DNA of 64,000 bases from positions 1 to 64,000 of IMG/VR virus record IMGVR_UViG_3300033049_000033. One strand, 5' to 3'. Below the pieces are notes generated by a model. The model saw only the letters and a list, made by a program, of their open reading frames with translations. It was not told the origin of the DNA and searched no databases. This DNA is from a virus. Lineage: Duplodnaviria > Heunggongvirae > Uroviricota > Caudoviricetes. Made by a program: the position numbers and the translations under genes. Positions 17,181 through 63,757 of this stretch are shown one piece after another (position 1 is the first letter of the stretch; every line of letters begins with the position of its first letter).

Positions 17181-17216
17181 TTGCATAAGTCAAATAAATT
17201 TTGTATCTTTGTAATA
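17181..17216 (+). promoter_or_regulatory. family-A promoter (TTGCATAAGTCAAAT...TATCTTTG), rightward, divergent from the RHH operon
   Basis: TTG 17181-17183, TATCTTTG 17204-17211. Confidence 0.55.
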
Positions 17217-17236
17217 TAATTGATGTGGTGGGTGTG

Positions 17237-17264
17237 AATAAGGCAAACGGAATAAGGCAAACGG
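17237..17264. repeat. tandem direct repeat 2 x 14 bp (AATAAGGCAAACGG) in the divergent regulatory region
   Basis: gaataaggcaaacgg gaataaggcaaacgg read directly. Confidence 0.6.
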
Positions 17265-17459
17265 AACAAATAAACAAAGGCGGTTATGGTTACCAACATC
17301 GGTGAGAATCGGTTCTGAGGGTTAGAATCCCAGTCTTATCCACCATCACCCATTGACAACTATAAAAATATTTTACTTTTATGTGGATAAGGACAATAAG
17401 TGGCTGGAGGTTCATTGAAGTTGAACAAACATCACAAGGAATGTGGGTACCAAAAATAG

Positions 17460-17690
17460 ATGATGGTAAAAACAAAACAAGATATAAGGATAACACCGAA
17501 AGAAAAGGCTAAGGAGTTTTTAGAAAAAGCTCGTCCACATGTTGAATATTGGGATTGTAGAAATGACAGCCCATTAGAATACGACCACCTCACAAAAATT
17601 ACCATGATTTGGGTTAACGAAATATTGGATACGTTGGAATGGATGTCGAATATAAAAGTTGGTGATGACATACTTTTAGATGAAAGTTAA
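17460..17690 (+). CDS. hypothetical protein
   Basis: 76 aa ORF after a 240-nt leader. Confidence 0.4.
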   Translation: MMVKTKQDIRITPKEKAKEFLEKARPHVEYWDCRNDSPLEYDHLTKITMIWVNEILDTLEWMSNIKVGDDILLDES

Positions 17691-17713
17691 GACATACCTT
17701 CGACCTAAAAATA

Positions 17714-17974
17714 ATGTATATGATTACTGAAGAAGAATTGGATACTTTAGATACCTTTGGTCGGGAAAATGATGGTTGTTATAGCGACAGATGGGAGTTT
17801 GCTATCCTACCTAGTAATCGTCTTTCTAGAAAAGAACGGAAATTACCAACAACGAAGTGGATGTTATGCTTCGAATCTGAGGTTGACGGTGCGCTGTGCC
17901 TGATTAAGTATCTTAAAGATTTTGATGACCTCAAAAACGTGTACCATGCTATAACTGATAATAAACTAACATGA
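17714..17974 (+). CDS. hypothetical protein
   Basis: 86 aa ORF. Confidence 0.4.
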   Translation: MYMITEEELDTLDTFGRENDGCYSDRWEFAILPSNRLSRKERKLPTTKWMLCFESEVDGALCLIKYLKDFDDLKNVYHAITDNKLT

Positions 17975-18855
17975 ATAGTAAAGAAGTTAAAAGAATACTT
18001 GATTTTGACGCGCTGCAAGCTGCCGAAAAAGTAACAGGTAAATCATATAAAGAGGATAAGGCAACTGAAGCTTTGGGTTTTTTAGGTCATATTGAAAGTT
18101 CAAAAAGGAAAACTGAATTACTAAAATCACTTGGGGATAGTACATTTTCCAATACTGAAGAAGATTACTTAAATATCGTTTCATCTATTGGCTTTGAATC
18201 AGTTTTAATCGAACCTTTTAAAAATAAAGACGGGATAGAAGAGAGACTTCATATAATGTGGGATAGAGAATCCTCAATATTGTTAGTTTTTGACACGCAT
18301 ACATATGGTGATGACGGCAGTTGGGCTAAAAGTGGACAAGAGGTTCCACCACCTAACGTAAATGGTGGTAGTATATACTATAATTGGTCACCTAATGTTA
18401 GGCATGAAAGTCATTGCACTAGTTCTGGTAGTTATGTCGGAAACGGTGACGGGAAGGGTACATATACAACATTATTTAATAGTGATTTTACACCTCATAT
18501 TTTACCAGATGAGTTGAGGATAATTGAACCTATTTTGGATTGGAATCGTTATGACGAATATCAAGAAGCGTTTAATAATTGGTGTGACAAAGTGGACATA
18601 TATATCGAATCAAACCAATTAACATCGATATGGAGTGGTGACCATGATTGTAGAGAAGCTATAAAATTTAGAATAAGTGAGCTTAAAAAGAACGGCACAT
18701 TTGTTAAAAAATGGATTAAGCCACCGTTTTTATGGTTACTCCACTATATGGATAGTAAGACTGAAGGATATGACCATGAAAAAATAACAATGGAAAGGGT
18801 TAATAAACTCCCTAAAGATATTATTGAAGCAATGAATGTGATAAACTTAAAGTAA
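17971..18855 (+). CDS. hypothetical protein
   Basis: 294 aa; ATGA-coupled; no motif. Confidence 0.5.
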   Translation: MNSKEVKRILDFDALQAAEKVTGKSYKEDKATEALGFLGHIESSKRKTELLKSLGDSTFSNTEEDYLNIVSSIGFESVLIEPFKNKDGIEERLHIMWDRESSILLVFDTHTYGDDGSWAKSGQEVPPPNVNGGSIYYNWSPNVRHESHCTSSGSYVGNGDGKGTYTTLFNSDFTPHILPDELRIIEPILDWNRYDEYQEAFNNWCDKVDIYIESNQLTSIWSGDHDCREAIKFRISELKKNGTFVKKWIKPPFLWLLHYMDSKTEGYDHEKITMERVNKLPKDIIEAMNVINLK

Positions 18856-18856
18856 T

Positions 18857-19135
18857 ATGAACACAGACAACACACCAATTAAAGACCCAAAAACATTTAT
18901 CCAATGTGAATGTTTTTCAGAGGGGTTATTATGTACCAATGCTAAAGATGAAAAACAAATTTATTTGGCCATGTTTAGCTACGGTATCGGATATAAACCA
19001 AAACGTTCTATATGGGAACGATTGAGCTATGCTTGGCATCACATTAGAACTGGAGATGTGTGGGATGATGAACTAATCATGGATTATAGCCAAGCTAAGG
19101 AATTAGCTATATGGTTAGAAACCAATACAATATAA
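18857..19135 (+). CDS. hypothetical protein
   Basis: 92 aa ORF. Confidence 0.4.
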   Translation: MNTDNTPIKDPKTFIQCECFSEGLLCTNAKDEKQIYLAMFSYGIGYKPKRSIWERLSYAWHHIRTGDVWDDELIMDYSQAKELAIWLETNTI

Positions 19136-19136
19136 A

Positions 19137-19918: not shown

Positions 19919-19937
19919 ATAATTTTAATTAAGTACA

Positions 19938-20530: not shown

Positions 20531-20638
20531 GGACTGGTTATTGTCAAATTAAATCGGTATCTTTGCCGTATATGGGTACTTTAACCGCGCAGTATCTCAT
20601 TATATAATAGCGGATTTTTATTAACTAACAAAAAACAA

Positions 20639-22172: not shown

Positions 22173-22216
22173 GATTAAAATTTGTTAGTCTGGATTATTT
22201 TACCTATCTTTGTATT

Positions 22217-22507: not shown

Positions 22508-22543
22508 ATCTGCATAAGTCGAATTAAATCTGCATAAGTCGAA
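22504..22543. repeat. 2 x 20 bp tandem duplication of a promoter -33 region (TTAAATCTGCATAAGTCGAA)
   Basis: direct repeat read in sequence; followed by TATCTTTG at 22553-22560. Confidence 0.6.
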
Positions 22544-22564
22544 TTAATTTAGTATCTTTGTATT

Positions 22565-23908: not shown

Positions 23909-23945
23909 TTTGCATATGTCAAATATTTTACCTATCTTTGTTGTT
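23909..23945 (+). promoter_or_regulatory. family-A promoter TTTGCATATGTCAAATATTTTACCTATCTTTG
   Basis: TTTG 23909-23912; TATCTTTG 23933-23940. Confidence 0.6.
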
Positions 23946-26541: not shown

Positions 26542-26909
26542 AAAATATACTAATAGTATTATTGATGTTACCTATGAGCTTACTAGCACAAGATGTTGCT
26601 GGTAAGTGGGGAGGTGGATGTATGTGGAAGAACATCTACGATGATGGTAAACCCAATAAGTATGCTGATATTTCAATAGTGTTCGAACATAAAGGTGGTA
26701 GTGTTTATACTGGCCATTGTAGAGAAGTGAATATACGTGAAGAGGGTGACACCATAATAATGACTTACGATATCGGTATTTTCATGAATGGTAATGGCGG
26801 TATGATGCCATTGAGTAAGTTAGAAATATTAATTTCTCAAGACACCGACTTAATTCTAAGGTTATTAAATAAAAGTTTTACAAAACTTGTAATTGTCAAC
26901 TATTTTTAG
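26538..26909 (+). CDS. hypothetical secreted protein
   Basis: 123 aa; N-terminal signal peptide MKNILIVLLMLPMSLLAQD. Confidence 0.45.
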   Translation: MKNILIVLLMLPMSLLAQDVAGKWGGGCMWKNIYDDGKPNKYADISIVFEHKGGSVYTGHCREVNIREEGDTIIMTYDIGIFMNGNGGMMPLSKLEILISQDTDLILRLLNKSFTKLVIVNYF

Positions 26910-26949
26910 TATCTTTACATTATAATAGGAATATACGCAGAACAAGCTA

Positions 26950-27267: not shown

Positions 27268-27477
27268 ATGACAATAGCAACAGGAATATCAATAGCGTTC
27301 ATGGCGATATTATGTATTGGAGTAGGAATTCCAGTAAAAGCTATATATGATATGGGTAAAGATAATAAGAAAAAATACGGTACTTGGGGTTTACCTAAGT
27401 CAAATGTTAAAAAAAATGGAAAAAAATCAGACAAAGGGTTGTTTTTCTCAAAAATAAGGAGTATCTTTGTATCATAA
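27268..27477 (+). CDS. small membrane protein with Lys-rich tail
   Basis: 69 aa; TM then KKNGKKSDKG. Confidence 0.4.
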   Translation: MTIATGISIAFMAILCIGVGIPVKAIYDMGKDNKKKYGTWGLPKSNVKKNGKKSDKGLFFSKIRSIFVS

Positions 27478-31826: not shown

Positions 31827-31942
31827 TGGTAGACCCATCGGCATCGTAAGTAGGGAAGGGTGGAAACGTATGGATGAAATGGATGATGCTGCTGAACGCA
31901 TATTCGAAATTGAGCGAGATAAATTAAATGGACTAAAATGAC

Positions 31943-31978
31943 TTGCATATGTCAAATATTTTACGTATCTTTGTGATA
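31943..31978 (+). promoter_or_regulatory. family-A promoter ACTTGCATATGTCAAATATTTTACGTATCTTTG
   Basis: TTG 31943-31945; TATCTTTG 31966-31973. Confidence 0.6.
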
Positions 31979-35430: not shown

Positions 35431-35467
35431 TTTGCATATGTCAAATCTTTTTCGTATCTTTGTACTA
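35431..35467 (+). promoter_or_regulatory. family-A promoter TTTGCATATGTCAAATCTTTTTCGTATCTTTG
   Basis: TTTG 35431-35434; TATCTTTG 35455-35462. Confidence 0.6.
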
Positions 35468-39387: not shown

Positions 39388-39797
39388 ACCAAGTACGTGA
39401 CGATGAGTATGGATTTATAGAGACTATGAATGGAGAAGTAGTTTCTCTCAGAGGAGTCACCAAAATACTGCCGAAAGATGACTGCCCATACCCTCATTCC
39501 AAATACCTCAATAGTAGTTGGAGTATATTAGGAGCCACCGATTTAGTATATACTAATGACTTAGGTAATAATACGTTGGTGATTGCCGTAGGAGCCTTTA
39601 GTAAAATACATTTAAAGAGACTGCTGGTTCCAAAAAGAGTAGCCAATCTCCTGATATATAGTGGAGTAACAATTGATGAGCCTGTGTATATAGGTGATAA
39701 GTTAAAAGACATAACAGCCCCAATAGAAATCCAATTCGTCAATCTTGAAGATAAGTTTAATGTAGATGAAGAAGAATTATCTATACTATTTGTATAA
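39384..39797 (+). CDS. hypothetical protein
   Basis: 137 aa ORF. Confidence 0.4.
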   Translation: MNQVRDDEYGFIETMNGEVVSLRGVTKILPKDDCPYPHSKYLNSSWSILGATDLVYTNDLGNNTLVIAVGAFSKIHLKRLLVPKRVANLLIYSGVTIDEPVYIGDKLKDITAPIEIQFVNLEDKFNVDEEELSILFV

Positions 39798-39865
39798 GTC
39801 AAAATAAATCAGTATCTTTGTAACACATCAAAACTAAGATAAATAGAAAGAAACGATAAACTGTA

Positions 39866-42059: not shown

Positions 42060-42268
42060 AAGGGTGATAGGTATCCGTTAAGAACTTTAATTAGCACCTG
42101 TGCCCTATTTCAGGGTAGTGGTAAAAGGTGTTGTTTTGTGGGTAAAAGTGGTAAACGGTGGTATAAGTAGTTGAGATATAGCTTATTATAGTGTTTATTC
42201 TTTTTAGAAATATCACTCTGTAAATAAAATTAGTCACTTTTTATACTTTGTTATTGTATAACATTGTA

Positions 42269-42286
42269 TGTACACATTTGTGTACA
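42269..42286. repeat. 18-bp palindrome TGTACACA-TT-TGTGTACA (copy 1)
   Basis: perfect inverted repeat; also at 42746-42763, 43765-43782 and 56180-56197, degenerate at 43167-43183. Confidence 0.8.
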
Positions 42287-42300
42287 AGGGTGGTATTAGA

Positions 42301-42336
42301 TTTGCATATGTTGATTTTTATTTGTACCTTTGTGTA
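42301..42336 (+). promoter_or_regulatory. promoter TTTGCATATGTTGATTTTTATTTGTACCTTTG (copy 1 of a duplicated promoter)
   Basis: TTTG 42301-42304; TACCTTTG 42325-42332; near-identical copy at 43875-43910. Confidence 0.6.
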
Positions 42337-42744
42337 ATGAAAAAATCAATAATAATAGTGTTCGTAGTGTTATGTATCGTAGTGTCATCTTCAGTTGATA
42401 GTCACTCAGTTGTCAATGATAGGTGGGAGGCACCAAGTAGTGCCGATACACTTAAAAATCCTTATACTAATAGTGCTGAAACATTTATCGTTGGTAAAAA
42501 ATTATTTAAACAAATGTGCGCCATATGTCATGGTAATAGAGGTAGAGGTAATGGAATCGGTGGAATCGGTCTACCGACCAAGCCGACAAATCTCACATCT
42601 AAGGTTATTCAAGGGCAAACCGATGGTGCCATTTTTTGGAAAATATCTGAGGGGAGGATTCCAATTTCACCAATGGCACCATATAAAAGCATATTAAAAG
42701 AAGACCAAAGGTGGGGGTTGGTTAATTATATTAGGACATTATAG
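42337..42744 (+). CDS. c-type cytochrome (class I, c551/c552-like) with signal peptide
   Basis: MKKSIIIVFVVLCIVVSSSVDS signal peptide; CAICH heme-binding CXXCH; distal Met in ISPMAPYK; start at 42337 because the upstream MYTFVY is translation of the palindrome. Confidence 0.8.
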   Translation: MKKSIIIVFVVLCIVVSSSVDSHSVVNDRWEAPSSADTLKNPYTNSAETFIVGKKLFKQMCAICHGNRGRGNGIGGIGLPTKPTNLTSKVIQGQTDGAIFWKISEGRIPISPMAPYKSILKEDQRWGLVNYIRTL

Positions 42745-42777
42745 ATGTACACATTTGTGTACATAGGGATAATTATA

Positions 42778-43164
42778 ATGTCACCTTCGGTGTTTCCTAT
42801 ACTCTTGTGGTGTGGGCTTATATTCATGGTATTGTTTATAGTACAAGCTATGAATATTCAGGTATATGGCAGAATGAGAGGAAATCAATACCTCATTGAT
42901 AATTTGTCTGAACTTAGTGCGGAAATCCGAATGGAGGGTAATAAGAATTGTTTGAGTTATCACTCTGAGCATATAATGTTCGTTAATGAGACTAAGACTT
43001 TGTTTGGGGATTACGTTATATTTGGACAAGCACCCAGTGAACAATATAGTGGCATTGTCTGGCGTGGTAGTACATTGCATTATTTTTTGAAGCGCAAGTT
43101 TGTGGAGCAACGAATACCCACTAAATCCTATGGATATGACAGTAGCATAGTAGAGCCTATGTAG
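42778..43164 (+). CDS. hypothetical membrane-anchored protein
   Basis: 128 aa from MSPSVFPILLWCGLIFMVLFIV; follows palindrome copy 2. Confidence 0.45.
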   Translation: MSPSVFPILLWCGLIFMVLFIVQAMNIQVYGRMRGNQYLIDNLSELSAEIRMEGNKNCLSYHSEHIMFVNETKTLFGDYVIFGQAPSEQYSGIVWRGSTLHYFLKRKFVEQRIPTKSYGYDSSIVEPM

Positions 43165-43180
43165 TATGTACACATTTGTG

Positions 43181-43783
43181 TCATAGCATGTTATTTTGTT
43201 TAATATATCGGTTAGTATAACTACATAATGGTTGTAGGTTAGTGTAATGATTTAGCTTAATAACATCAGAGACATTTTTAGCTGTGGCCAATGGTATTAT
43301 ATGGTCAACATCCCATGCTACGTTAGGCTTATCGGGGGTACCGTTCCAGTTACCTTTATTATTCCAATTCATCCATTCTTCGAATTGTCTTTCTAAATGT
43401 AAGAGTAGCTCTTCGTAAGTACATCCCAATATTAACTCAGTTTTACTTGGTTTAGGTGTACCTATCTGATTAAATGATGCCCAGATGCAGGTTTTAATAT
43501 TTTTTTTTAGTTTATACAATGGGTCTTGAATTATTTTGTTACGTTGATATTCCCTCATATGTTCTTTATTATTAGCCCTCCATGTTCTTCCGTAGTCTAA
43601 TTGTTGTTGTTTATTTTTATCGTACCATTCTTTTTTCTGTTTTGCTATTTTATCAGCATTTCTTTTTAGGTATGCTTTTCTTACTTCTTTATTGTATGCC
43701 ATATTATTTGCGTTTCTTAATAAATATGAGATAATAAGTAGAAGTACACATTTATCATCTTTTATGTACACAAATGTGTACAA
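43181..43783 (-). CDS. HNH homing endonuclease (paralog 3)
   Basis: WDVDHIIPLATA...NLQPLCSYTNRYIK; GCTYEELLLHLERQFEEWMNWNNKG; true start probably MAYNKE at 43702 because the first 27 codons read through the palindrome. Confidence 0.75.
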   Translation of the reverse strand: MYTFVYIKDDKCVLLLIISYLLRNANNMAYNKEVRKAYLKRNADKIAKQKKEWYDKNKQQQLDYGRTWRANNKEHMREYQRNKIIQDPLYKLKKNIKTCIWASFNQIGTPKPSKTELILGCTYEELLLHLERQFEEWMNWNNKGNWNGTPDKPNVAWDVDHIIPLATAKNVSDVIKLNHYTNLQPLCSYTNRYIKQNNML

Positions 43784-43874
43784 AGGTTAATATTCGTGCT
43801 TGATTGTTAATCATACAACTAAGGTAGGTATTATATATTAGACTACCAAACTTTTCTTCTACTATTATATGAAA

Positions 43875-43910
43875 TGAAGTTTTATTTGTGTATGTCGATT
43901 TTTATTTGTA
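43875..43910 (+). promoter_or_regulatory. promoter copy 2 (TTTGTGTATGTCGATTTTTATTTGTACCTTTG)
   Basis: direct repeat of the 42301-42336 promoter; bounds the cytochrome-c/HNH cassette. Confidence 0.55.
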
Positions 43911-43989
43911 CCTTTGTTGGCATGAATGATAACTCAGTAATGGCAATTATAGCTATATGTTTTTTTGGATTATGGCCATATCAATAAGT

Positions 43990-44400
43990 ACACTTCCAAA
44001 AATGGAGGTTGCGAAGGAAAAGACTAAACAATTAGAGTATCAGTGGAAGATTGATTCGGTTGCATCATTAGGTGCAACCCCGTTAGATATATAGGTTTAC
44101 TGTGTGAAAAAGGTAACGGTATAATAGGACGCGGAAAATCGTTATCTGGTATCCTCATATATTATCATGAGTCTTCGGGCAAAAGTGAGGGTATCTGACC
44201 GCAGTTTAATGGATTTGACTGGCGCTCCTGAAGGGAATGCTGGTCTTTTCTATCTGGTAGTTTTAACAACGTGCAGGCGATTTTAGGTCAACGTCCCTCT
44301 GATTTCTCCACCATGCTATCTCAATTGGCGCCTGTCTTAATGACACTTCAAATATAAGGACAATAAATGAGACCACCAAATAAAAATAAAAGTTTTTTAT
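43990..44400 (+). other. about 400-bp ORF-free, hairpin-rich region (candidate structured RNA or leader)
   Basis: no ORF of 60 aa or more on either strand; GGTTGCATCATTAGGTGCAACC hairpin, CTTCGG tetraloop hairpin, higher local GC than the flanks. Confidence 0.3.
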
Positions 44401-44622: not shown

Positions 44623-44660
44623 AATTTGGTAGTGTCGGATTAATTGTTTATCATTGTACT

Positions 44661-45321: not shown

Positions 45322-45626
45322 AAGACAAGGATTTTATTGGGATGGAGCTTAACGGCTTTATATGTAGTGTACAACATGAGACAGGTTCATTGGAGTGGCA
45401 TAACCCCATTAATGGGGGGCTTTCGATATATGCCACTCCAAATTACAGTGAAGATAATGTTGTACCATTTGACTACTCAATTGATGGGGATTATTACCAT
45501 GTATTTGATTTAGAGTTCCCAGAAGGATTGGATGAGGGAACTAAGAAGGACTGGTATATGAATATGTTGCTTGGGGTAATATTAATTGCAACGGTTCACT
45601 ATCAGAGTTTGGAATTGTCAAATTAA
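45318..45626 (+). CDS. hypothetical protein
   Basis: 102 aa ORF. Confidence 0.4.
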   Translation: MKDKDFIGMELNGFICSVQHETGSLEWHNPINGGLSIYATPNYSEDNVVPFDYSIDGDYYHVFDLEFPEGLDEGTKKDWYMNMLLGVILIATVHYQSLELSN

Positions 45627-45643
45627 TTGTTTATCATTGTAGT

Positions 45644-46120: not shown

Positions 46121-46397
46121 TGGAAGGGAAAGACGTATCTTATTTGTGGCAAGCATCTTGTGAAGATGGTATTATCTTAGACTACAAAGAGCTAATTGAT
46201 GATAAGAAGATGGCAACCATTGCCAATAAGTGTGCGGCCTATGGTTAATAGGACAGCTCTACGTAATTTAGAGAGCTTAGGGTTAATCAAAATGGGGGAC
46301 ATTGATAGAAGTCCGACTAAAGAAGACATTGAGAAATACAAAGAAATATTTGGTAGTCTCGAATAATAAACGTAGATTTGTTTCAAAGGAAAAGACA

Positions 46398-46981: not shown

Positions 46982-47044
46982 AAATAAATTTGGTGGTTAC
47001 GAATTAATTACTACCTTTGTATTAAACAATTAAAACATAAAACA

Positions 47045-47893: not shown

Positions 47894-47931
47894 GATTTGG
47901 TAGTCTGGAAATTTATTCTTAATATTACATT

Positions 47932-48516: not shown

Positions 48517-48577
48517 ATAAATTTGGTAGTATGGAATTTTATCACTATCTTTACAAAGAACTTAAAGACTTAATTAA

Positions 48578-49405
48578 ATGCCTAATCACGTAACGAATAT
48601 TGTAGATTTTTCAGGGATTGATGCAGAAAAAGCTGCACTTGCACTATATGAAGACGGAGAATTTAACTTTGGTTTTGCACCAATGCCTAAAGAACTTGTA
48701 GGGACACGTAGCCCTGCTAAAGTAGTAAGTGAGGCAGAATTAGCTGTAGAGATTGTAGAGTTCGAGGCAAGAGACTATAAGGAAGCGATGGGTCGTAGCT
48801 TCAGCCTCACCCGTGAGCAGAGTGATACGCTTATAATGAAGTATGGGACTAACAATTGGTATGATTGGGCTTGTGATAATTGGGGTACGAAATGGGCAGG
48901 GTACGATGGAGATTTAATCACTCCAACACAGTGTATGTTTCAGACAGCATGGTCAACTCCATTCCCTGCAATGGTTCTATTGAGTTTGAAGTACCCCGAA
49001 GTAACCCTTATAGTTCAATTTTCTGATGAAGATTTCGGTTCTAATGTAGGGACGTATGAAATTTTGAACGGTATTAAGATTGTGGACAATGTACCCGAAT
49101 ATGGGTATGAAAGTCTTGAGATGGCATTCAAAATTCAGGGAGAAAAGGAATATCAATTGGACTGGATTTTTGAACAATTTGAAGATACCAATGAAGGACA
49201 AGAAAAGTTCCATTCTGAATTAGATACTAACGACTACATTGCTTGGGCAGCCGACAAGATAGTAGAACTGAGTTATTTACCTGATGGGCATATATCGGTA
49301 TTTATCCTTAAATACCTTGAAAAACAATCAGTTACGGCACAAAACTTCGAGCTTGCCAAAGATATTAAGGAAAGAATTGATGGAATAGTTGGAGAAACCA
49401 AATAA
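48578..49405 (+). CDS. hypothetical protein
   Basis: 275 aa; NWYDWACDNWGTKW motif of unknown function. Confidence 0.45.
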   Translation: MPNHVTNIVDFSGIDAEKAALALYEDGEFNFGFAPMPKELVGTRSPAKVVSEAELAVEIVEFEARDYKEAMGRSFSLTREQSDTLIMKYGTNNWYDWACDNWGTKWAGYDGDLITPTQCMFQTAWSTPFPAMVLLSLKYPEVTLIVQFSDEDFGSNVGTYEILNGIKIVDNVPEYGYESLEMAFKIQGEKEYQLDWIFEQFEDTNEGQEKFHSELDTNDYIAWAADKIVELSYLPDGHISVFILKYLEKQSVTAQNFELAKDIKERIDGIVGETK

Positions 49406-49590
49406 ATTGCTTACCTTTGTAATACAAGGATGTAACAATAACACGTAGTAACGGATACTACCCCGAACATAGTGGAATACTGTAAGCGCAAGATAGGAGA
49501 TGCCTATACGAGGCCACGATTCAAAAATGATAGCTTACATGCAGAAGGGTTCAGTCGCAATGCCGTTAACATCCAACTAAAAAGAATTAT

Positions 49591-49791: not shown

Positions 49792-49823
49792 GACAGGAGT
49801 TTGTCAACTTTAACTTCAGTTTG

Positions 49824-49856
49824 AAAGCCTGCCCTTATGGGTGGGCTTTCTTTTTG
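49824..49856 (+). terminator. rho-independent terminator
   Basis: AAAGCCTGCCC-TTAT-GGGTGGGCTTT then TTTTTG. Confidence 0.65.
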
Positions 49857-49924
49857 AAAAATAAATTTGGTAGTGTGGATTATTATGCGTAGATTTGTTT
49901 CACACTAAAGAAAAACTATAAGAC

Positions 49925-50524
49925 ATGGGGCAATATTATACACCTGCCATATTAGGCAAAGACAAATTCAAAGGCAAGGACTTACAAATCATTTGGCATG
50001 CAAATGCTCATAACTGTAAGAATACTACCACCAGAGGTGATAATAGTACATACGAATCAATTACGGGTTTGAAACTCATGGAACATTCTTGGATGGAAAA
50101 CGGATTCGTTGGATTGGTAGAAGCTCAACTAACCGATGAACCTAAAAGACTGGTCTGGTCTGGTGATTATGCCGAGCCTGAATTTGAAGGTGGTGCTACT
50201 ATAAGTAACCTATGCGAGGAGACTTATAAGTCTATGGAAGCAGCACCAACGCTGAATAATTCAGCTATGGAAGGATTTCCTTTCTTGGTAAACCATTCCA
50301 AAAAGGTGTATGTGGATAAGCGAAATACACCTTTAGATACTGATGGATGGCAAATACATCCATTACCACTATTAACCTGTGAAGGTAACGGTGGAGGTGG
50401 TGGAGACTTCCGAGGTAATGACCCAGACGAGCTAATAGGTAGTTGGGCAAGGGATTTAATCCAAGTAGTTAGCGAAAAGCCAAGCGATGAGTTCAAAGAA
50501 CTGAAATTTAATTTGGTAGAGTAA
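49925..50524 (+). CDS. hypothetical protein
   Basis: 199 aa ORF. Confidence 0.45.
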   Translation: MGQYYTPAILGKDKFKGKDLQIIWHANAHNCKNTTTRGDNSTYESITGLKLMEHSWMENGFVGLVEAQLTDEPKRLVWSGDYAEPEFEGGATISNLCEETYKSMEAAPTLNNSAMEGFPFLVNHSKKVYVDKRNTPLDTDGWQIHPLPLLTCEGNGGGGGDFRGNDPDELIGSWARDLIQVVSEKPSDEFKELKFNLVE

Positions 50525-50573
50525 AATTATTTACCTACCTTTACACCTATAAACGAGATAAACTAAGTAAAAC

Positions 50574-51212
50574 ATGGGATATACCACAAATTTTCAGGGA
50601 GAGTTCGGACTTAATAAGGAACTAACACCAACGCTTAAAACTTTCTTAGAGAAGTTAGCCGATACTAGGCGAATGAGTAGGGTTGTAGATGTTGATTTCG
50701 GTGTGGAGGGTGAGTTCTACGTGGAGAATGATGAATTGGGCGTTACGGATAACAATAATCCTAGTCGCACTCAACCAGGACTATGGTGTCAATGGATTCC
50801 AACCGAAGATGGTATGGGTATTGAGTGGGATTGTAACGAAAAGTTCTACAATTATTCAGAGTGGTTAGTATATATCATAGATACTATTTTAGCCCCTAAC
50901 GGTTATGTGTTAAATGGTACAGTAGAATACCGTGGAGAGGAATTTAGTGATATTGGTGAGTTAGTAGTTGAAGATAACCAAGTGTATTTTAGACCACATA
51001 AGGGGGCTGACATTATGTATGACAAAGACCTTAATCCAAAATCGGTTTGGATGGATAAGGTAGAAACTACCGTAGATGAAGCTGATGTTGACGAAAGTGA
51101 AGATGTGCAATTCCTTAGAACTCTGGTAGTCGAACTGGAAAATGGTATGGGCGATGAGGCGATTCAACTCATTGAGGATAAAATTGAAGAAAAACTTGCA
51201 CAGTCTAAATAA
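50574..51212 (+). CDS. hypothetical protein
   Basis: 212 aa ORF. Confidence 0.45.
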   Translation: MGYTTNFQGEFGLNKELTPTLKTFLEKLADTRRMSRVVDVDFGVEGEFYVENDELGVTDNNNPSRTQPGLWCQWIPTEDGMGIEWDCNEKFYNYSEWLVYIIDTILAPNGYVLNGTVEYRGEEFSDIGELVVEDNQVYFRPHKGADIMYDKDLNPKSVWMDKVETTVDEADVDESEDVQFLRTLVVELENGMGDEAIQLIEDKIEEKLAQSK

Positions 51213-51252
51213 GTTACCTATATTTGTGTCATACTAATCAAAACAACAAACA

Positions 51253-52999: not shown

Positions 53000-53260
53000 A
53001 TGAGTGTATATGTGGGAGGATTGGTCATCAAGGGGATAGCCTTTGAGATACATGGTGAGAGATATATGCATCCTGAATTGGATTGTCATGGTCAAAGATT
53101 ACATAATGGATACGATTATTATGATGTGTACACTATGGGTACCAAATTGGGGTGTCTGGATTGTATAAATGAAGGTCATCCGTTTTATAAGTTACCAACA
53201 GTAGAAGAACTAAAGAAATATTTGGATGGTAAGGATTTTTTTAGTACCTTTAACCCATAA
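53000..53260 (+). CDS. hypothetical protein
   Basis: 86 aa ORF. Confidence 0.4.
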   Translation: MSVYVGGLVIKGIAFEIHGERYMHPELDCHGQRLHNGYDYYDVYTMGTKLGCLDCINEGHPFYKLPTVEELKKYLDGKDFFSTFNP

Positions 53261-53730: not shown

Positions 53731-54414
53731 TTAAAATTCGTCCCTCTTTATATATCTATTGTTATAACTACATAGAGGTTGTTGATTTTTGAAATGGCAT
53801 AGTTCTAATAATTCGTTTTCCGTATTCGCTGTTGATAATGGAATTATATGGTCTAAATCCCAACCATGATTAAGTTCTCCATTATATTTACCATAGTTAT
53901 CCCAATCCATCCAATCCTCCCATTGTGACTCAATATGTAGTTTGAATTCTTCGTAAGTACATCCCAGTATTTTATATGTCGTAGAAGTCTTAGAGTATCC
54001 CTTATCTTTGAGTAATATAGAAATCCTACTTCTTAAATTAATTGTCAGTTTATATAGTGGGTCTTTTGCCACCCTATTAGTACGATAATTTCTATTGTAT
54101 TCTCTAATTTTTTCTCTATTGGAGTCATAGTACTTTTTCTTTGCTAATTTTGTTTGTTCTGGTCGTTCTCTGTTATAAGCTACTAACCTATCTTTATTCT
54201 TTTTTGCGTATTGCTTAGTCGTTTCTTTAATTGTATCTTTATTAATAATACGATATTCTTTGATATAAGCCTTTATATGTTCCTTATTAGCTTCACGCCA
54301 TTTTCTTCTTCTTATTAATCGCGCTTCTTTGGTTTGTTTCATTATGTTGTTTTTATATAAATATGGGGGAACTTGTAAAAATGTTAAGGAATGCATGAAG
54401 ACCTCCAGAAACAA
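53731..54414 (-). CDS. HNH homing endonuclease (paralog 4)
   Basis: basic repeats; GCTYEEFKLHIESQWEDWMDWDNYG...WDLDHIIPLSTA...NQQPLC. Confidence 0.8.
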   Translation of the reverse strand: MFLEVFMHSLTFLQVPPYLYKNNIMKQTKEARLIRRRKWREANKEHIKAYIKEYRIINKDTIKETTKQYAKKNKDRLVAYNRERPEQTKLAKKKYYDSNREKIREYNRNYRTNRVAKDPLYKLTINLRSRISILLKDKGYSKTSTTYKILGCTYEEFKLHIESQWEDWMDWDNYGKYNGELNHGWDLDHIIPLSTANTENELLELCHFKNQQPLCSYNNRYIKRDEF

Positions 54415-54436: not shown

Positions 54437-54472
54437 AATTTGGTAGTGTCGGATTAATTGCTTACCTTTAGA
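54437..54472 (+). promoter_or_regulatory. family-B promoter AATTTGGTAGTGTCGGATTAATTGCTTACCTTTA
   Basis: TTTG 54439-54442; TACCTTTA 54463-54470; ATG at 54475. Confidence 0.6.
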
Positions 54473-55420: not shown

Positions 55421-55458
55421 AATTTGGTAGTGTGGATTTAATTTGTATCTTTGTATTA
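55421..55458 (+). promoter_or_regulatory. family-B promoter AATTTGGTAGTGTGGATTTAATTTGTATCTTTG
   Basis: TTTG 55423-55426; TATCTTTG 55446-55453. Confidence 0.6.
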
Positions 55459-56176: not shown

Positions 56177-56204
56177 TTATGTACACAAATGTGTACATAA
56201 GAAC

Positions 56205-56710
56205 TTAAAAGTCAATTTGGTCACATTTTATATACCTATTGACGTATGAGCATAGTGGTTGAAGATTAGTATAATGATTCAGTCTGATTACATCTTCTTC
56301 TGATGTTGCTGACGAAATTGGTATTATATGGTCAATATCCCAACCATAGTTCAGTTCACCATTATATAAGCCCCTATTATCCCAGTTCATCCATGATTCA
56401 AAGTTAGATTCCAAATGTAGCTTAAATTCTTCAATTGTGCAACCTAAAATCTCATATGTAGTAGATTTTTTTGTATAATTATACATTCTAAATATATTAC
56501 CAATCATTCTCTTAACTTTTCTTTTTAGTAAATAAATTGGGTCGTTGAGACTCTTGGTTTTATTCCAAGAAGACCTACTTTTACTAATCTTATTCTATCT
56601 GACATAACAATATCATTAGTTAAACAATATTTTTTATATTGTTTTCTCATTATTTTTTCCATTAAGAATGTGATTCGAACTGGTTCTGCCTTAAATTTCC
56701 GTATATTCAT
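56205..56710 (-). pseudogene. decayed HNH homing endonuclease (paralog 5, frameshifted)
   Basis: 100-aa C-terminal ORF (56205-56507) retains GCTIEEFKLHLESNFESWMNWDNRG...WDIDHIIPISSA...NLQPLC; upstream DPIYLLKRKVKR continues in frame without a start; the repeat-like segment MRKQYKKYC (56525-56710) is in another frame; A/T homopolymer runs. Confidence 0.6.
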
Positions 56711-56796
56711 ATATATGAAACTTTAGTAAAAAGTCAATAATGTTTGGAAATGTAAATATTTTTACTATCTTTGTTTCAATATTAAAACAACAACTA

Positions 56797-57516
56797 ATGA
56801 AAAAGACAAAGACTCCAACTGGTTATGTGATATATAAAGGGCCATCACAGCTTAACGGTAAAGAAATAGTCGCTATTGTTACCATGAAATCGACTAATAT
56901 AAAAACGGGTAACATGGCTCAATTGTGGATATTATTAGAAGGTCTGAACCCTGTTGAGGCAAGCCAAACCAAAGCTGATGATGCTATTTGTGGTTCGTGT
57001 CAATTTAGGCAATCTTTAGGTGGTGCTTGTTATGTGAATATCGGACAAGCACCAGGTATTATCTTTAGAGCCTATAATAAGGGTAACTATCCATTTGCTC
57101 ACGATTATAGTGTTTTTGAAGGTAAAAGTATGCGATTTGGTGCTTATGGCGACCCTGCGGCAATTCCTTTGGATATTCTAACTAAGTTGAAAGCGGTTGT
57201 TACTAATAACACTTCATACACACACCAATGGAAAAATAACGATAATAAAGCATTGAAAGATGTATCAATGGCAAGTGTTGACAACCTATTAGAAGCTGAA
57301 CAAGCCAAAGAAAGAGGTTATAGGTGGTTCAGGGTAACTAATGACATTGAAACGCTTAGAAGCGATGAAATAATTTGCCCTAACTATACAAGTAACGTAC
57401 AATGCAAAGATTGTAAGTTATGTAGTGGCAATGGTGCGAAGGGTGCAAAGTCTATTGTAATACCAAGTCACGGCTCATGGAAAGGTAGGTTTACGGAAGT
57501 AACAAGTCACGCTTAA
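56797..57516 (+). CDS. hypothetical protein
   Basis: about 239 aa from MKKTKTPTGY after a TATCTTTG promoter; several Cys (CGSCQ, CKDCKLCSG). Confidence 0.45.
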   Translation: MKKTKTPTGYVIYKGPSQLNGKEIVAIVTMKSTNIKTGNMAQLWILLEGLNPVEASQTKADDAICGSCQFRQSLGGACYVNIGQAPGIIFRAYNKGNYPFAHDYSVFEGKSMRFGAYGDPAAIPLDILTKLKAVVTNNTSYTHQWKNNDNKALKDVSMASVDNLLEAEQAKERGYRWFRVTNDIETLRSDEIICPNYTSNVQCKDCKLCSGNGAKGAKSIVIPSHGSWKGRFTEVTSHA

Positions 57517-58174
57517 CGTATCTATTAACATAACTACATAACGGTTGGAGATTGTTGAACTTGTTAAGGTTCAATACTTCTTCTTCTGTTATTGCGGAGC
57601 TACTAGGTATTATGTGGTCAATATCCCATGTCTTATCAGGCTCTACGATACCATCTTTAGGGTTACCATAATTATCCCAATTCATCCAATCCTCCCATTG
57701 TGATTCGATATGTGATTTGAATTCATCGAATGAACACCCCAATATTTCGTGGGCTTTAGATTTTTTAGTATAACCGCCTTCAACTATTTTAAGGCGTATT
57801 AGGCTCCTGACGTTTTTACTTAACCTATATAGTGGGTCGTGTTTCCTTTCATGGTATCGCTTTAAGTTGTATTGTAACTTAGCGGTTTTATTCTCTACAT
57901 ATCGATTGCGGTCTTTTCCCCTCATCCAATCTCGATTATCTTCTCTATATTGCTTATGGTATTCAGTCCTAACGTCTATATTATCTTGATAATACTTAGC
58001 ATTCTGTTGACTTATTCTATCCTTCATACATAATTTACAATGGTATTTGTATCCGTCTGGCGTATTTTTATTCTTATAGAATTCGTTAAGTGGTTTTTCT
58101 ATTTCACATTTACTACATATCTTCATGGTTAGTCTTTTATATAAATAGTGATGAATGTATGAAAGTCTTCCCAC
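57491..58174 (-). CDS. HNH homing endonuclease (paralog 6) with N-terminal zinc ribbon
   Basis: CSKCEIEKP...YHCKLCMKDR; GCSFDEFKSHIESQWEDWMNWDNYG...WDIDHIIPSSSA...NLQPLC. Confidence 0.8.
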   Translation of the reverse strand: MGRLSYIHHYLYKRLTMKICSKCEIEKPLNEFYKNKNTPDGYKYHCKLCMKDRISQQNAKYYQDNIDVRTEYHKQYREDNRDWMRGKDRNRYVENKTAKLQYNLKRYHERKHDPLYRLSKNVRSLIRLKIVEGGYTKKSKAHEILGCSFDEFKSHIESQWEDWMNWDNYGNPKDGIVEPDKTWDIDHIIPSSSAITEEEVLNLNKFNNLQPLCSYVNRYVKRDLLLP

Positions 58175-58232
58175 ACATGGAAGTAATTAAAGAAAATTTG
58201 TATAAGTCGATTTAATTACTTATCTTTACGCT

Positions 58233-58502: not shown

Positions 58503-58582
58503 TACCTACGCATGGTTCATGGTCGAAACGATTTGATGAGGAAAAAGTTGCATAAGTCAAATTAATTACTTATCATTGTACT

Positions 58583-58894: not shown

Positions 58895-59048
58895 TTTGGT
58901 AGTGTGAATATTAATCCGTACGGCAATGGCTGAAGTGGACGTAACTCAGCAAGGATTTGTTGAAGCTATTGATACAGCCGTTACCTCTGCGGCAAATAAT
59001 TATTAATCAAAGTTTGGTGGTTACGAATTAATTACTTACCTTTACGCT

Positions 59049-59801: not shown

Positions 59802-59855
59802 ATTTGGAAGTGTGAAATATTATGCGTAGATTTGTTTCTCACTAAAACGATAAAC

Positions 59856-60206: not shown

Positions 60207-60262
60207 TTTGGATATTAGAAAACTTTTACTATCTTTGTACTGAACAATTAAAATAAGAAGCA

Positions 60263-60759: not shown

Positions 60760-60772
60760 AAGTGTCTCATTA

Positions 60773-60810
60773 GATTTGGATATGTCATTTTAATTACTTA
60801 CCTTTACAAT
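60773..60810 (+). promoter_or_regulatory. family-B promoter TAGATTTGGATATGTCATTTTAATTACTTACCTTTAC (near-identical copy at 61404-61440)
   Basis: TTTG 60775-60778; TACCTTTA 60799-60806. Confidence 0.6.
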
Positions 60811-60816
60811 ATAAAC

Positions 60817-61137: not shown

Positions 61138-61424
61138 TGGAGCGTTACAAATATGAGTACCACGGATGGCAGATAATTGTCTACATGAACGGGGACATCA
61201 AAATATCTCGCAACGGTGAAGATAGAACCTATGGTATAGGCGTTATTGCCAAGATTGAACAGAACAAGGAGTATGTATATCTATACTATCCTGAAGGTAA
61301 TTTTGTTCAAGTAAAATTCGAACAGGCAGACTTCTTAGTGATTGATGAGTTCAATTCAGATGGCGAGTTCGTGGATAGTATCGGCTCACACGTATTTGAA
61401 TTAGATTTGGATATGTCATTTTAA
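61134..61424 (+). CDS. hypothetical protein
   Basis: 96 aa from MMERYKYEY (ATGATG overlap). Confidence 0.4.
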   Translation: MMERYKYEYHGWQIIVYMNGDIKISRNGEDRTYGIGVIAKIEQNKEYVYLYYPEGNFVQVKFEQADFLVIDEFNSDGEFVDSIGSHVFELDLDMSF

Positions 61425-61441
61425 TTACTTACCTTTACACT

Positions 61442-61696
61442 ATGTCAAAAACAATAAGATTAACAGTTAACCTCACGTTCAGCGAAAAGGTTGTAACCGA
61501 TGAAGATATGCAAGAAATTGTAAACAACGTAGGCGAGGCTATCGACTATCAGATACAAAAGATAGGTGTTGCCCCCGAAGAAAGCGATGTACTAACCGAT
61601 GTGGTTGAAGTAATGAACCATTTTCAGGGGCTAAATACCATAAATCATTCAATCTATGATAGTGGAGTATGTAAGTGTATGGGACGGTGGTTATGA
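61442..61696 (+). CDS. hypothetical protein
   Basis: 84 aa ORF. Confidence 0.4.
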   Translation: MSKTIRLTVNLTFSEKVVTDEDMQEIVNNVGEAIDYQIQKIGVAPEESDVLTDVVEVMNHFQGLNTINHSIYDSGVCKCMGRWL

Positions 61697-61980
61697 AGTT
61701 AGAAGCTATTGCGACTATGACCCCGAAACAACAATAGTTAGCAATATCGAACAAGTTGATGTTGAAGAGAAATTGACAAATTATTTGGAGATATGAAAAA
61801 TAATACCTATATTTGTTTTATCAAGTTGGCAATATTGCTATGAACATCTAAAGATTAGAAATTATCGGACAAAGACATCAACTTTTCATTAAAATTGCCA
61901 ATCCAGTTAAGAATGACATCTTTAGGAATGAAGATTTAACAAGAGCCAATAAGATATTTGGTAAAGGTAAATTCACAGTT

Positions 61981-62607
61981 TTGGCGTTTCACCACCAATG
62001 GTTATATGGTCAATCTGCTGTTGTTAATGTGATTGAGACACTTAAAAAGTGTAATCCTGAAACCGCCACAAGTTATTCACCATTTGCAGTAGATGGTTGG
62101 AATGGAGATTTAGATACGTGGTTGAAGCAAGTTACGGCTATCATTTCCGTACAAACCAATCCGCTACACCCAAGAGGTATCGGGTACGAGGGGTTTTGGA
62201 TGCTGAATGAATCAGACCCAACCATGAGAACTCATTGTGATTATGGCGATAACAACGATGGAATTACGGTGATTGATGCTATTGAGCAAAAGTATTGCAT
62301 GATGAACATCTACGATGAAGACCATGAGTATATCCATATTTCCAATTTACCTAAGTTATACCCGTCAGATACAAGGTCGTACTTAAAATTGTATTACCCC
62401 GAAATGATGGTTAATTGTAAAGACTATTATAGTCATCGTAAGTTTTCAGATGAAAAGATAAAAGAACTGGTAAAGACTAATGTTCAAGACAATGGCAAAT
62501 TAAATGTCATTACGAATAAATACGATGTTTTGACATTACCTGAATTGAAAAAGATTTTTCCTGCAATGAGAAAACAGTTCGCAGAATCAAAACTGTTAGT
62601 GTCCTAA
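61981..62607 (+). CDS. hypothetical protein
   Basis: 208 aa ORF. Confidence 0.45.
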   Translation: MAFHHQWLYGQSAVVNVIETLKKCNPETATSYSPFAVDGWNGDLDTWLKQVTAIISVQTNPLHPRGIGYEGFWMLNESDPTMRTHCDYGDNNDGITVIDAIEQKYCMMNIYDEDHEYIHISNLPKLYPSDTRSYLKLYYPEMMVNCKDYYSHRKFSDEKIKELVKTNVQDNGKLNVITNKYDVLTLPELKKIFPAMRKQFAESKLLVS

Positions 62608-62623
62608 GCAACCACTATTTATT

Positions 62624-62833
62624 ATGGAAATTGGCGATAAAATTATTTGGTCAGACCATTATGGTTATGATGTGGGTTGGCTTAGTAGTCAGAATAACAC
62701 TGAGGCTTCATTTAAGCTCATTACAGGCACTCGAAAGGGTGCAACGGTGTCCAAACCTATTGAACAAGTAGAAGGGTTCACAGAGGAGAACTATGAGCGC
62801 CATTCAAAAAGATTTGGGGAAAAGATTTGGTAG
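62624..62833 (+). CDS. hypothetical protein
   Basis: 69 aa ORF. Confidence 0.4.
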   Translation: MEIGDKIIWSDHYGYDVGWLSSQNNTEASFKLITGTRKGATVSKPIEQVEGFTEENYERHSKRFGEKIW

Positions 62834-62861
62834 TGTGGATTTAATTGCTTAGATTTGTTTC

Positions 62862-63005
62862 ATGATACTACGATTCAGAATACATTACGATGATTCTTCA
62901 TATTGCTGCCCCGATTGCGGTAAGCCTTGCGAAGAGTGTACACCTATTGATTGGGGCTACGATTGTCCCGATTGTGACATTCATTTTGAAACACCTGACG
63001 TATGA
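62862..63005 (+). CDS. small zinc-ribbon protein (47 aa)
   Basis: MILRFRIHYDDSSYCCPDCGKPCEECTPIDWGYDCPDCDIHFETPDV; below the 60-aa track cutoff. Confidence 0.35.
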   Translation: MILRFRIHYDDSSYCCPDCGKPCEECTPIDWGYDCPDCDIHFETPDV

Positions 63006-63184
63006 CACAGAACGAGAAAGCGGTAATCAGACTTAATAGTATTGACATTCCAGCCTTTGAGGATAACGATACCGTATATATAACGGTTGAGGAGACTAAT
63101 TTAGAGATTGCGATATACGAAATTGAACACCAAGCAACGAGATTTAACGAGTGTATTAAAGAAGACCCAACTTATTTTGGATAA
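63002..63184 (+). CDS. hypothetical protein
   Basis: 60 aa ORF. Confidence 0.35.
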   Translation: MTQNEKAVIRLNSIDIPAFEDNDTVYITVEETNLEIAIYEIEHQATRFNECIKEDPTYFG

Positions 63185-63222
63185 TATTTGGTAGTTACGA
63201 ATTAATTACTTAGCTTTACACT

Positions 63223-63699
63223 ATGACAAACTACAAGATTAAATGGGAGATAGACATCGAGGCAACGAGCCACGAAGAAGCAGCTAAAAAAGCATTAGAA
63301 CTCCAAAAGGACGATTCATCGTTAGCGACTATCTTTTCGGTAACAGACATGAATGGTTACTGTAAAGAAATCGATGTTCAGATTCAAGATGAAATGATTG
63401 ACCATATTGGCAACATCAAGCGTATCATTGGTAGGTATGGTTATTTTACTACCTTTGATGTTGAGGCTGATAGTTCACCATCGATTAATAGTATAGGTAA
63501 TGTGATGCAATTGGCTGAATGTTTCTATCTTGACTACGCTACTTGTACTACATATATCGGTAGTAGGGAAGAGAGCGAAGAAGATTTAACCTATGAGCAG
63601 TTAGGTTCGGTTGACCCATTTATCGTAGAACATATCTCTTCATTAGCTGACGATTGGGAAGCGGAAAGTCTTAGAACGGAGAAAAGAATTGCTAATTAA
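63223..63699 (+). CDS. hypothetical protein
   Basis: 158 aa acidic ORF. Confidence 0.45.
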   Translation: MTNYKIKWEIDIEATSHEEAAKKALELQKDDSSLATIFSVTDMNGYCKEIDVQIQDEMIDHIGNIKRIIGRYGYFTTFDVEADSSPSINSIGNVMQLAECFYLDYATCTTYIGSREESEEDLTYEQLGSVDPFIVEHISSLADDWEAESLRTEKRIAN

Positions 63700-63757
63700 T
63701 TTGGTAGTTACAAATAAGTTACCTATATTTGTTTCACACTAACGAAAACTATAAGAC

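Follow-up and report, generated by a model that had tools for sequence, protein, structure and literature searches.

Strong early promoters of the coliphages T5 and T7 have conserved positions beyond the hexamers, and middle promoters of phage T4 carry, in place of the -35 element, a MotA box that is read by an activator. Mobile promoter cassettes, the promoter-early stem-loop (PeSL) elements, have reportedly been described in T4-type phages by Arbiol and colleagues in 2010. Promoters of the Bacteroidota primary sigma factor (sigma ABfr) consist of a -33 TTTG and a -7 TAnnTTTG element (Bayley 2000 and Chen 2007, as quoted in PMC6847099). The -33 element of Flavobacterium johnsoniae is "much less evident", while G-5 is nearly invariant and there is almost no G at -10 and -9 (Baez 2019, PMC6847099). 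Here we describe predicted promoters of this type in 64,000 nucleotides of DNA from a virus of the Caudoviricetes (positions 1 to 64,000 of IMG/VR record IMGVR_UViG_3300033049_000033; hereafter the window). Their extended -33 regions fall into two word families, A and B, and the prevailing family switches at about 44 kb. The two are most likely widespread flavours of one promoter that the host can read, made more distinct in this genome by the duplication of cassettes.

Expected motif counts were obtained from dinucleotide-preserving shuffles of the window. The exact pattern TTTG-N19-21-TAnnTTTG occurs 21 times against 1.47 expected, 20 of the 21 on the + strand, which bears out the architecture that the initial annotation had ascribed to both families; the coordinates it cited were all verified as well. 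The family A 16-mer TTTGCATATGTCAAAT, with up to three mismatches, has 15 matches where 2.0 are expected, a number reached in none of 100 shuffles, and the family B 23-mer, at the same threshold, has four where none is expected. TTTGGTRG is found 23 times against 4.8 expected, and 16 of these fall in 43.8-63.7 kb. Escherichia coli-type -35/-10 sites are not enriched in the window (77 against 78 expected; 81 against 88 expected), and this promoter type was rejected because its sites stand at chance level.

We curated 42 sites in which an xTTG core precedes, by 19-20 nt, a -7 element carrying no more than one mismatch, and in which an open reading frame (ORF) starts downstream. The -7 element is an exact TAnnTTTG in 27 of them and has one mismatch in 15; 38 sites have 20 nt between -33 and -7, and the other four have 19 nt. 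They occupy gaps of 50-60 nt ahead of ORFs, with the ATG 4-45 nt downstream, a placement that agrees with their original description as promoter-like sites of the -33/-7 (Bacteroidota sigma A) type. With sigma ABfr promoters they share the two elements, the spacing of about 20 nt, the position relative to genes and a -7 that is mostly TA(H)(H)TTTG. They differ in that the phage -33 is near-invariant, about 12 nt longer and of two coupled flavours, whereas the published form, as quoted above, is TTTG only; in addition, about 36% of the phage sites are of a leaderless type, and one third of the G-type sites (those with G after TTTG) carry -7 variants uncommon in hosts, although canonical -7 versions also exist. 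Like the T5 and T7 early promoters, they match and exceed the host consensus; the host phylum and the consensus are different.

The claim that two families switch near 44 kb held up well. G follows TTTG in only one of 16 sites left of 43.8 kb but in 23 of 26 to the right (Fisher p=1.2e-7). The family A word is TTGCATATGTCAAAT and the family B core is TTTGG-TAG. The 12-nt words lie nearer to each other (mean nearest-neighbour distance 1.69) than in column shuffles (2.67+-0.12), and their summed mutual information is higher (9.58 against 5.24+-0.36), both values being reached in 0 of 1000 shuffles; the words are therefore discrete families, and not a smear or a set of independent position preferences. 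Promoter density also changes, from about one per 2.4 kb in the left block to about one per 0.8 kb in the right. The partition is leaky, with A-type sites at 51195, 58197 and 58547 inside the right block, a B-like site at 22181 inside the left, hybrid words (TTTGGATATGTCATTT or TTTGGAATTGTCAAAT) at 45608, 60775 and 61406, a third small word, nTTGTTTTTCTC(G/A)AA, at 7401 and 27438, and two B-type promoters on the minus strand (43850 and 44380). Family B itself is real, but the consensus first written for it is a composite of sub-cassettes: only four sites match the 23-mer, and "CTTACCTTTAC" is confined to one sub-cassette (58197, 59013, 60775, 61406 and 63187).

Promoters and leaders in the window form cassettes with 65-90% identity across 46-72 nt, grouped in repeat families D3, D7, D8, D9, D11, D13 and D18, with near-identical units ahead of many small ORFs. 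The similarity ends at the cassette edges and the genes themselves lie outside it. Of the local duplications of promoters with their leaders that had been proposed, the 22509/22529 tandem and the 60775/61406 pair are real, but the leader end at 59803 differs, and the CTATAAGACATGG leader is common to 49866 and 63700 only. A B word (TTTGGTAGTGTGAATATTAATCCG) without a -7 element behind it lies at 58895-58920 and is apparently a decayed promoter cassette. Like the PeSL elements, these are short promoter cassettes repeated ahead of small early-type ORFs, a distribution that fits shuffling by recombination; unlike them, they have no conserved stem-loop, and terminator-like hairpins are not enriched in the window (11 against 8.6 expected; 8 against 9.3), only that at 49823-49850 preceding a cassette. 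An inverted repeat formed by TAGTGTG in the B word and CACACTA in the leader was considered as a hairpin or operator and dropped, being absent from other members, for example 63700.

Three relatives, obtained through a protein database and contig retrieval, were available for comparison: L189 (sigma factor 79% identical), L194 (DUF932 protein 74% identical) and L195 (52%). Among 11 pairs of orthologous promoters the class is kept in nine and switched in two: the promoter of the homolog of ORF 58583 is A here and G-type in L194, while the DUF932 promoter is A-like here and in L194 and G-type in L195. Even within a class, the words of orthologous promoters differ at up to 6 of 12 positions. Taken with the 65-90% identity among cassettes of the window, this divergence indicates that much of the word identity reflects shared descent of promoter-leader cassettes.

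Both words are widespread outside this lineage. By exact scanning of IMG/VR, at least 118 stretches with the A word and 70 with the B word were found; 36 of 119 A matches (among the matches listed) and 18 of 70 B matches stand at the correct distance from a -7 element. The IMG/VR contigs with A or B words have no DNA similarity to the window, and many of them contain dense one-strand promoter arrays with similar words, A and B occurring together in single contigs. At the promoters of these loci that did not serve as seeds, G follows TTTG in 75%, and GTAG (30 of 107), GATA (15) and GTGG (10) are each at least as frequent as CATA (10). A BLAST query with an A-type promoter gave 51 records at 80% coverage or more; all the named phages are Bacteroidota phages (crAss-like, Prevotella Lak with 3-9 places each, Cellulophaga and Chryseobacterium), and four Bacteroidota plasmids were also found. 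In the Chryseobacterium jumbo phage MA9V-1 (L411:20001-20038), a CATATGTCAAAT word with a TTTC core lies directly ahead of an annotated sigma gene. Literature searches found no paper that contains the longer words and, on the subject of Bacteroidota phage promoters, no description of either family.

In bacterial chromosomes, the pattern TTGSWDRTGTCRAWT-N8-TAHHTTTG, which covers both words, was found at 120 or more loci in a set of 185,579 species genomes. Among the matches listed, nearly all are in Bacteroidota chromosomes, often several per genome, ahead of unrelated genes including tRNAs. The 151 other promoters of the host loci listed have the consensus tTTG CATAT.T(C/G)AAA; CATA is the commonest continuation of TTTG (39 of 151), with GTAG in five and GTGG in four. 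By this consensus, family A is the usual extended form of the -33 region in Bacteroidota promoters, or at any rate in those of Bacteroidales. Again among the matches listed, G follows TTG in all six from other Bacteroidota (Cytophagales, Flavobacteriaceae, Sphingobacterium and one unclassified Bacteroidetes bin) against 28 of 110 from Bacteroidales (p=4.5e-4). The positions of the word are coupled: in the host loci (L197-L316) the first position is T in 61 of 73 promoters with G at position 5 against 99 of 173 with C (p=7e-5), and around phage sigma genes in 115 of 131 against 28 of 68 (p=1e-11). Two host segments, one of them from a Polaribacter chromosome, were too small for statistics on hosts; they showed -7 elements but no clear -33.

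In the cultured Elizabethkingia phage TCUEAP1 (49.8 kb), "aataaaTTTGGTAG..." promoters number at least 12 and stand about 50 nt ahead of annotated genes, including that of DNA polymerase. No promoter of the CATA type was found in TCUEAP1, the B core being the only form; its annotation lists no sigma gene, and tblastn returned nothing beyond a match of 16 residues (E=0.64). A motif specific to a phage sigma factor should be absent from uninfected hosts and from phages without a sigma gene, which is true of neither the A word nor the B core. The idea, put forward in the initial annotation, that the two words mark two regulons thus finds no support, since both occur in hosts and unrelated phages and orthologs can switch class; its variant in which the phage-encoded sigma factor recognizes one class fares no better, with the B core as the sole type in a phage without a sigma gene.

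We consider it probable, with some reserve, that the RNA polymerase of the host, directed by its sigma A, reads both families. Each site has the -33 TTTG, a spacer of about 20 nt and the -7 TAnnTTTG, and transcription would be expected to begin 4-5 nt past the -7. Two layers would then account for the words. The first would be a functional consensus: with TTG aligned to the E. coli -35 hexamer, the sites read TTG-CAT (A) or TTG-GTA (B), followed by a preferred T.T(C/G)AAAT, and the phylum-wide consensus would come in two coupled flavours, nTTGCA... and TTTGG.... In E. coli geometry, TTGCAT or TTGGTA is hexamer-like and separated by 17 nt from the TA of the -7, so that the difference between A and B, which falls at the end of such a hexamer, would begin within the footprint expected of sigma region 4.2. 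Flavour A dominates the chromosomal promoters of Bacteroidales, and flavour B is found in genomes of the Flavobacteriia, Sphingobacteriia and Cytophagia types and in small-gene arrays of many phages. The second layer would be shared descent, cassettes of 50-70 nt comprising promoter and leader having been copied and recombined inside each block, because of which words can be near-identical over 20-40 nt within the genome yet divergent between orthologs. The switch at about 44 kb would then reflect two differently built blocks, long operons on the left and one cassette per small gene on the right, which may also differ in timing or strength.

Several observations weigh against this reading. The preference by host class is based on six matches from five genomes among the matches listed, where rumen Bacteroidales dominate. 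A BLAST query with a B-type promoter did not return many phage records, and Bacteroidota plasmids were absent from them. At least three sigma-like proteins are encoded by the phage, and the one at 2283-3182 has an altered region 2.4 and a 7-amino-acid insertion in the helix-turn-helix (HTH) turn of region 4.2, just before the recognition helix. G-type sites of the lineage include -7 variants that are rare in hosts (TAnnTTTA in 11, TAnnTTAG in six, G at "nn" in 7 of 43), and at least four contigs with G-type or B-type arrays also carry sigma A-like genes. Finally, the firing of the sites, their reading by host sigma A and the start positions are all deduced from sequence, and the sites stand as predicted promoters.

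The sigma-70-family gene at 2283-3182 (+ strand) is itself real, as the initial annotation had it: it has Pfam and PHROG matches, and its product, a paralog of Bacteroidota primary sigma A, contains regions 1.2, 2 and 4 and has about 40% identity to the primary sigma A (RpoD/SigA) of Cytophagales and Polaribacter, within a clade found on phage-like contigs. Two true regulons could be built on it in a cascade from host to phage sigma, in which host sigma A would read family A and this paralog would prefer G-type and B sites, its 7-residue insertion and changed region 2.4 favouring TTTGG and tolerating TAnnTTTA, TAnnTTAG and TAGnTTTG. In agreement with this, the sigma alignment places the insertion beside the helix that recognizes the -35, the relaxed -7 variants are nearly confined to G-type -33 sites in the lineage, and the array contigs with sigma A-like genes show the two together. 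Phage sigma genes also lie behind promoters resembling the host consensus (A-type for the ECF-like operon, L025:9642; the site at 1834 for the sigma A-like gene), and the MA9V-1 word stands immediately ahead of a sigma gene. However, TTTGG with a good -7 is all that TCUEAP1 has, without a sigma gene; the same core is found in bacterial chromosomes, orthologous genes switch class, genome size confounds the co-occurrence with sigma genes, and the recognition helix SRERVRQI is unaltered. Distant members of the clade have two extra residues at the same turn. When HTH insertion length was set against promoter flavour at 80 sigma loci, the anchor motifs were missing in most sigmas and nearby promoters were mixed, which left the comparison uninformative. 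The system recalls early and middle promoters of T4 in having two classes with a common downstream element that differ near -30, in the genome of a phage that reprograms transcription; it differs in that TTTG stays at the same position in both families and that both forms occur in uninfected hosts and in a sigma-less phage. On balance we regard two regulons as unlikely.

A more natural candidate target for a phage sigma factor than family A or B is a third promoter-like motif, (A/C)TATTTATA, which lies 6-25 nt ahead of ATG, has no -33/-7 architecture and resembles the T4 late promoter TATAAATA. It occurs in the window at 623, 3390 and 5256 on the + strand and at 1795, 16993, 43727, 54364 and 58148 on the minus strand, preceding ORFs 638 and 3413, a GIY-YIG gene at 5279 and five of six paralogous minus-strand ORFs described below (none was found for 56205-56507). 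Elsewhere in the same genome it is present six times against 1.2 expected, all on one strand (L384 6094, 7513, 9913, 12255, 13974 and 18001), before long genes and the second sigma A-like gene. One could imagine a three-step cascade in which TTGCATATGTCAAAT would be read by host sigma A, TTTGGTAG with a relaxed -7 by the phage sigma A paralog and TATTTATA by another phage sigma, accompanied by massive use of leaderless mRNA and a phage IF3; two of its steps would lie in the window. We judge this scheme distinctly improbable.

The words at -32 to -21 might instead be operators for a host or phage DNA-binding regulator, such as a dimer on the partial TTTG-N7-CAAA dyad of the A word, in which case each family would be its own set of operators. 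The A word does have outer dyad symmetry and an inner CATATG palindrome, its reverse complement gives TTTG on the opposite strand at 17194 and 3817, and MA9V-1 retains CATATGTCAAAT despite a TTTC at -33. Its symmetry is nevertheless limited to the outer 4 bp, and B words have no dyad. An activator site centred near -29 would occupy an unusual position for bacterial promoters, and an A word ahead of hundreds of unrelated host genes in many families is better explained by a polymerase or DNA-shape signal than by a single regulator, which makes operators very doubtful. That the families are a mere residue of recent duplication of genes with their promoters, devoid of functional meaning, might be read from the 65-90% identity of cassettes over 46-72 nt, the decayed copy at 58895 and the strong divergence of words between orthologs, but it is hardly credible when the A word and B core recur in otherwise dissimilar contigs and bacterial chromosomes and the similarity halts at the cassette edges, outside the genes.

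The -7 element of F. johnsoniae runs from T-12 to G-5, with the start site 4-5 nt further (Baez 2019, PMC6847099). At 15 of the 42 promoters of the window, exactly 4 nt (in one case 5 nt) separate the -7 element from the ATG, which places the ATG at this start-site position; leaderless mRNAs are therefore predicted, for example at 3803, 22181, 22529, 31942, 42301, 44625, 54439, 58197, 58547, 59013, 61406, 62826 and 63187. About one third of the promoters thus appear to give leaderless transcripts. The same ATG placement is seen in 16 of 26 promoters of the relatives, in 11-17% at unrelated phage loci and in 7 of 274 at host loci. Leaders are longer than 10 nt in 87% of F. johnsoniae transcripts (Baez 2019, PMC6847099), and about 3.7% of the 5' untranslated regions of Bacteroides thetaiotaomicron are shorter than 10 nt (Ryan 2020, PMC7366714).

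The left block opens, all its predicted promoters being on the + strand, with a T-rich word (TTTG TTTTATTGATAA..TATCTTTG) at 1834..1865, upstream of the operon containing the sigma gene. Next come an A-type site (TTTGCATATATCAAAA..TATATTTG) at 3803..3834, with ATG 4 nt past the -7 (predicted leaderless), whose orthologous site in L189 is also A-type, and the third word (GTTGTTTTTCTCGAAT) at 7401..7432, ahead of the DNA ligase gene and kept in the L189 ortholog. The sole G-type site left of 43.8 kb, a G-type/hybrid (TTTGGTTTTGTCAAAA), is at 12974..13005. An A-type site at 17180..17211 (CTTGCATAAGTCAAAT..TATCTTTG) is followed at 20534..20565 by half an A word (TTATTGTCAAAT) with a weak -33, CTGG, then by the B-like TTTGTTAGTCTGGATT at 22181..22212 (leaderless) and by an A-type site (TCTGCATAAGTCGAAT, leaderless) at 22509..22560 whose -33 word is tandemly duplicated at 20 nt. 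The exact A word is found at 23909..23940 and 35431..35462; between these lie the A-like CTTGTAATTGTCAACT..TATCTTTA at 26886..26917, the third word again (GTTGTTTTTCTCAAAA) at 27438..27469 and a leaderless A-type site at 31942..31973. The block is completed by A-type sites at 39789..39820 (TTTGTATAAGTCAAAA), 42301..42332 (TTTGCATATGTTGATT, leaderless) and 43885..43916 (TTTGTGTATGTCGATT), the last of these being the final one.

The right block begins with the two minus-strand B-type sites, 43819..43850 (TTTGGTAGTCTAATAT..TACCTTAG) and 44349..44380; all others are on the + strand. Of B type are 44625..44656 (TTTGGTAGTGTCGGAT..TATCATTG, leaderless), 46349..46380 (-7 = TAGATTTG), 46989..47019 (TTTGGTGGTTACGAAT), whose leader is common to the promoter with the exact word and a canonical -7 at 55423..55453 (repeat family D18), and 48522..48553, ahead of the DUF1281_C gene, where the L194 ortholog is B-type too; 47896..47927, whose -7 (TAATATTA) is degenerate, is a weak candidate of B type (leaderless). 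Further B-type sites are 49866..49897, which has a TTTCACACTAA leader and -7 = TAGATTTG and lies directly 3' of the strong terminator 49823-49850, 50512..50543 (-7 = TACCTTTA), 54439..54470 (leaderless), 59013..59044 (-7 = TACCTTTA, leaderless), 59803..59834, with 90% identity over 51 nt to the cassette at 49859 (family D7), 62826..62857 and 63187..63218 (both leaderless) and 63700..63731, again with the TTTCACACTAA leader. G-type words without further assignment occur at 49388..49419 (GTTGGAGAAACCAAAT), 53221..53252 (TTTGGATGGTAAGGAT), 56743..56773 (TTTGGAAATGTAAATA), 60207..60237 (TTTGGATATTAGAAAA) and 61784..61815 (TTTGGAGATATGAAAA). The hybrids are 45608..45639 (TTTGGAATTGTCAAAT, leaderless), 60775..60806 (TTTGGATATGTCATTT) and its leaderless duplicate 61406..61437. 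The A words within this block comprise the A-like CTTGCACAGTCTAAAT at 51195..51226, ahead of the DUF932 gene (same word in the L194 ortholog, G-type in L195), and the leaderless A-type sites 58197..58228 (TTTGTATAAGTCGATT) and 58547..58578 (GTTGCATAAGTCAAAT), the L194 ortholog of the latter being G-type.

Behind the minus-strand promoter at 44380, the region 44050-44350 has no ORF, and we propose that it may encode a small RNA of some 100-130 nt, for which Rfam gave no match. Its putative 5' end, GAAGTGTCA.TAAGACAGGC, is also conserved in L194 (~14590) and L195 (~11425 and 3875), again behind B-type promoters on the minus strand; in these relatives GTTCTAAGGGAACCTGC and a terminator hairpin come next. 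No matches were obtained when the whole window was scanned for Rfam families and tRNAs.

The window has a G+C content of 35.9% and nearly all its ORFs are on the + strand. Apart from the sigma factor, it encodes an ATP-dependent DNA ligase, an integrase-like recombinase, an SPFH protein, a peptide deformylase and DUF932 and DUF1281_C proteins. At 12995-16127 an RNA ligase gene is interrupted by an intein (Hint/intein splicing domains) with a homing endonuclease ORF at 13958-14899. The remaining ORFs are mostly small and without a family match, and Pfam scans of 20 proteins from both blocks were nearly all negative, so that gene function could not be used to assign the timing of the blocks. A Megablast comparison of 44 kb from the window with the phages in GenBank gave no match, IMG/VR searches seeded with the DUF932 and SPFH proteins found no relatives, nor did a search of the metagenome collection with DUF932, and database look-ups past the window ends added nothing new. 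The contig IMGVR_UViG_3300033049_000020 (152,464 bp) stops 58 bp short of the window start, with 99.98% identity in the flanking assembly overlap; joined, the two give a genome of at least ~216 kb, that of a jumbo phage. The adjoining contig contributes an ECF-like sigma, a second sigma A-like gene, NAD-salvage genes and, shortly before the window start, an IF3 homolog (L193:3435-3983). The NAD-salvage enzymes are NMNAT-NUDIX, NAMPT and PRPP synthetase, and their genes are located behind A-type promoters; sigma and NAD-salvage genes of this genome have the coordinates L193:471-1097, L384:9965-10813 and L025 2612-5757 and 9694-10662.

Six paralogous ORFs on the minus strand (996-1775, 16124-16816, 43181-43783, 53731-54414, 56205-56507 and 57491-58174) are scattered among the + strand arrays. 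They have 60-83% nucleotide identity, two of the six with weak HNH matches, and probably represent a family of mobile endonuclease genes. A perfect palindrome, TGTACACA-tt-TGTGTACA, recurs at gene ends (42266-42297, 42743-42774, 43164-43195, 43762-43793 and 56177-56200) and is present in the relatives L194 and L195 too; it could be a terminator or an operator.

For this phage, the analysis provides a transcription map of about 42 predicted promoter sites with operon structure and predicted leaderless genes, and it removes as unsupported the tempting link between motif family and phage sigma factor. Many apparently leaderless genes together with a phage IF3 offer a testable lead for the study of how translation works in a phylum where Shine-Dalgarno sequences are not used. 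More generally, our results suggest that the TTTG at -33 in Bacteroidota promoters opens a longer signal with the flavours nTTGCA-TATGTCAAAT and TTTGG-TAG..., and that Bacteroidales differ from other classes, and chromosomes from phage gene arrays, in their use of these flavours. Such an extended, two-flavoured -33 signal is possibly a new general point, described in no source cited here. If true, it would aid the prediction and design of Bacteroidota promoters and the assignment of hosts to uncultivated phages.

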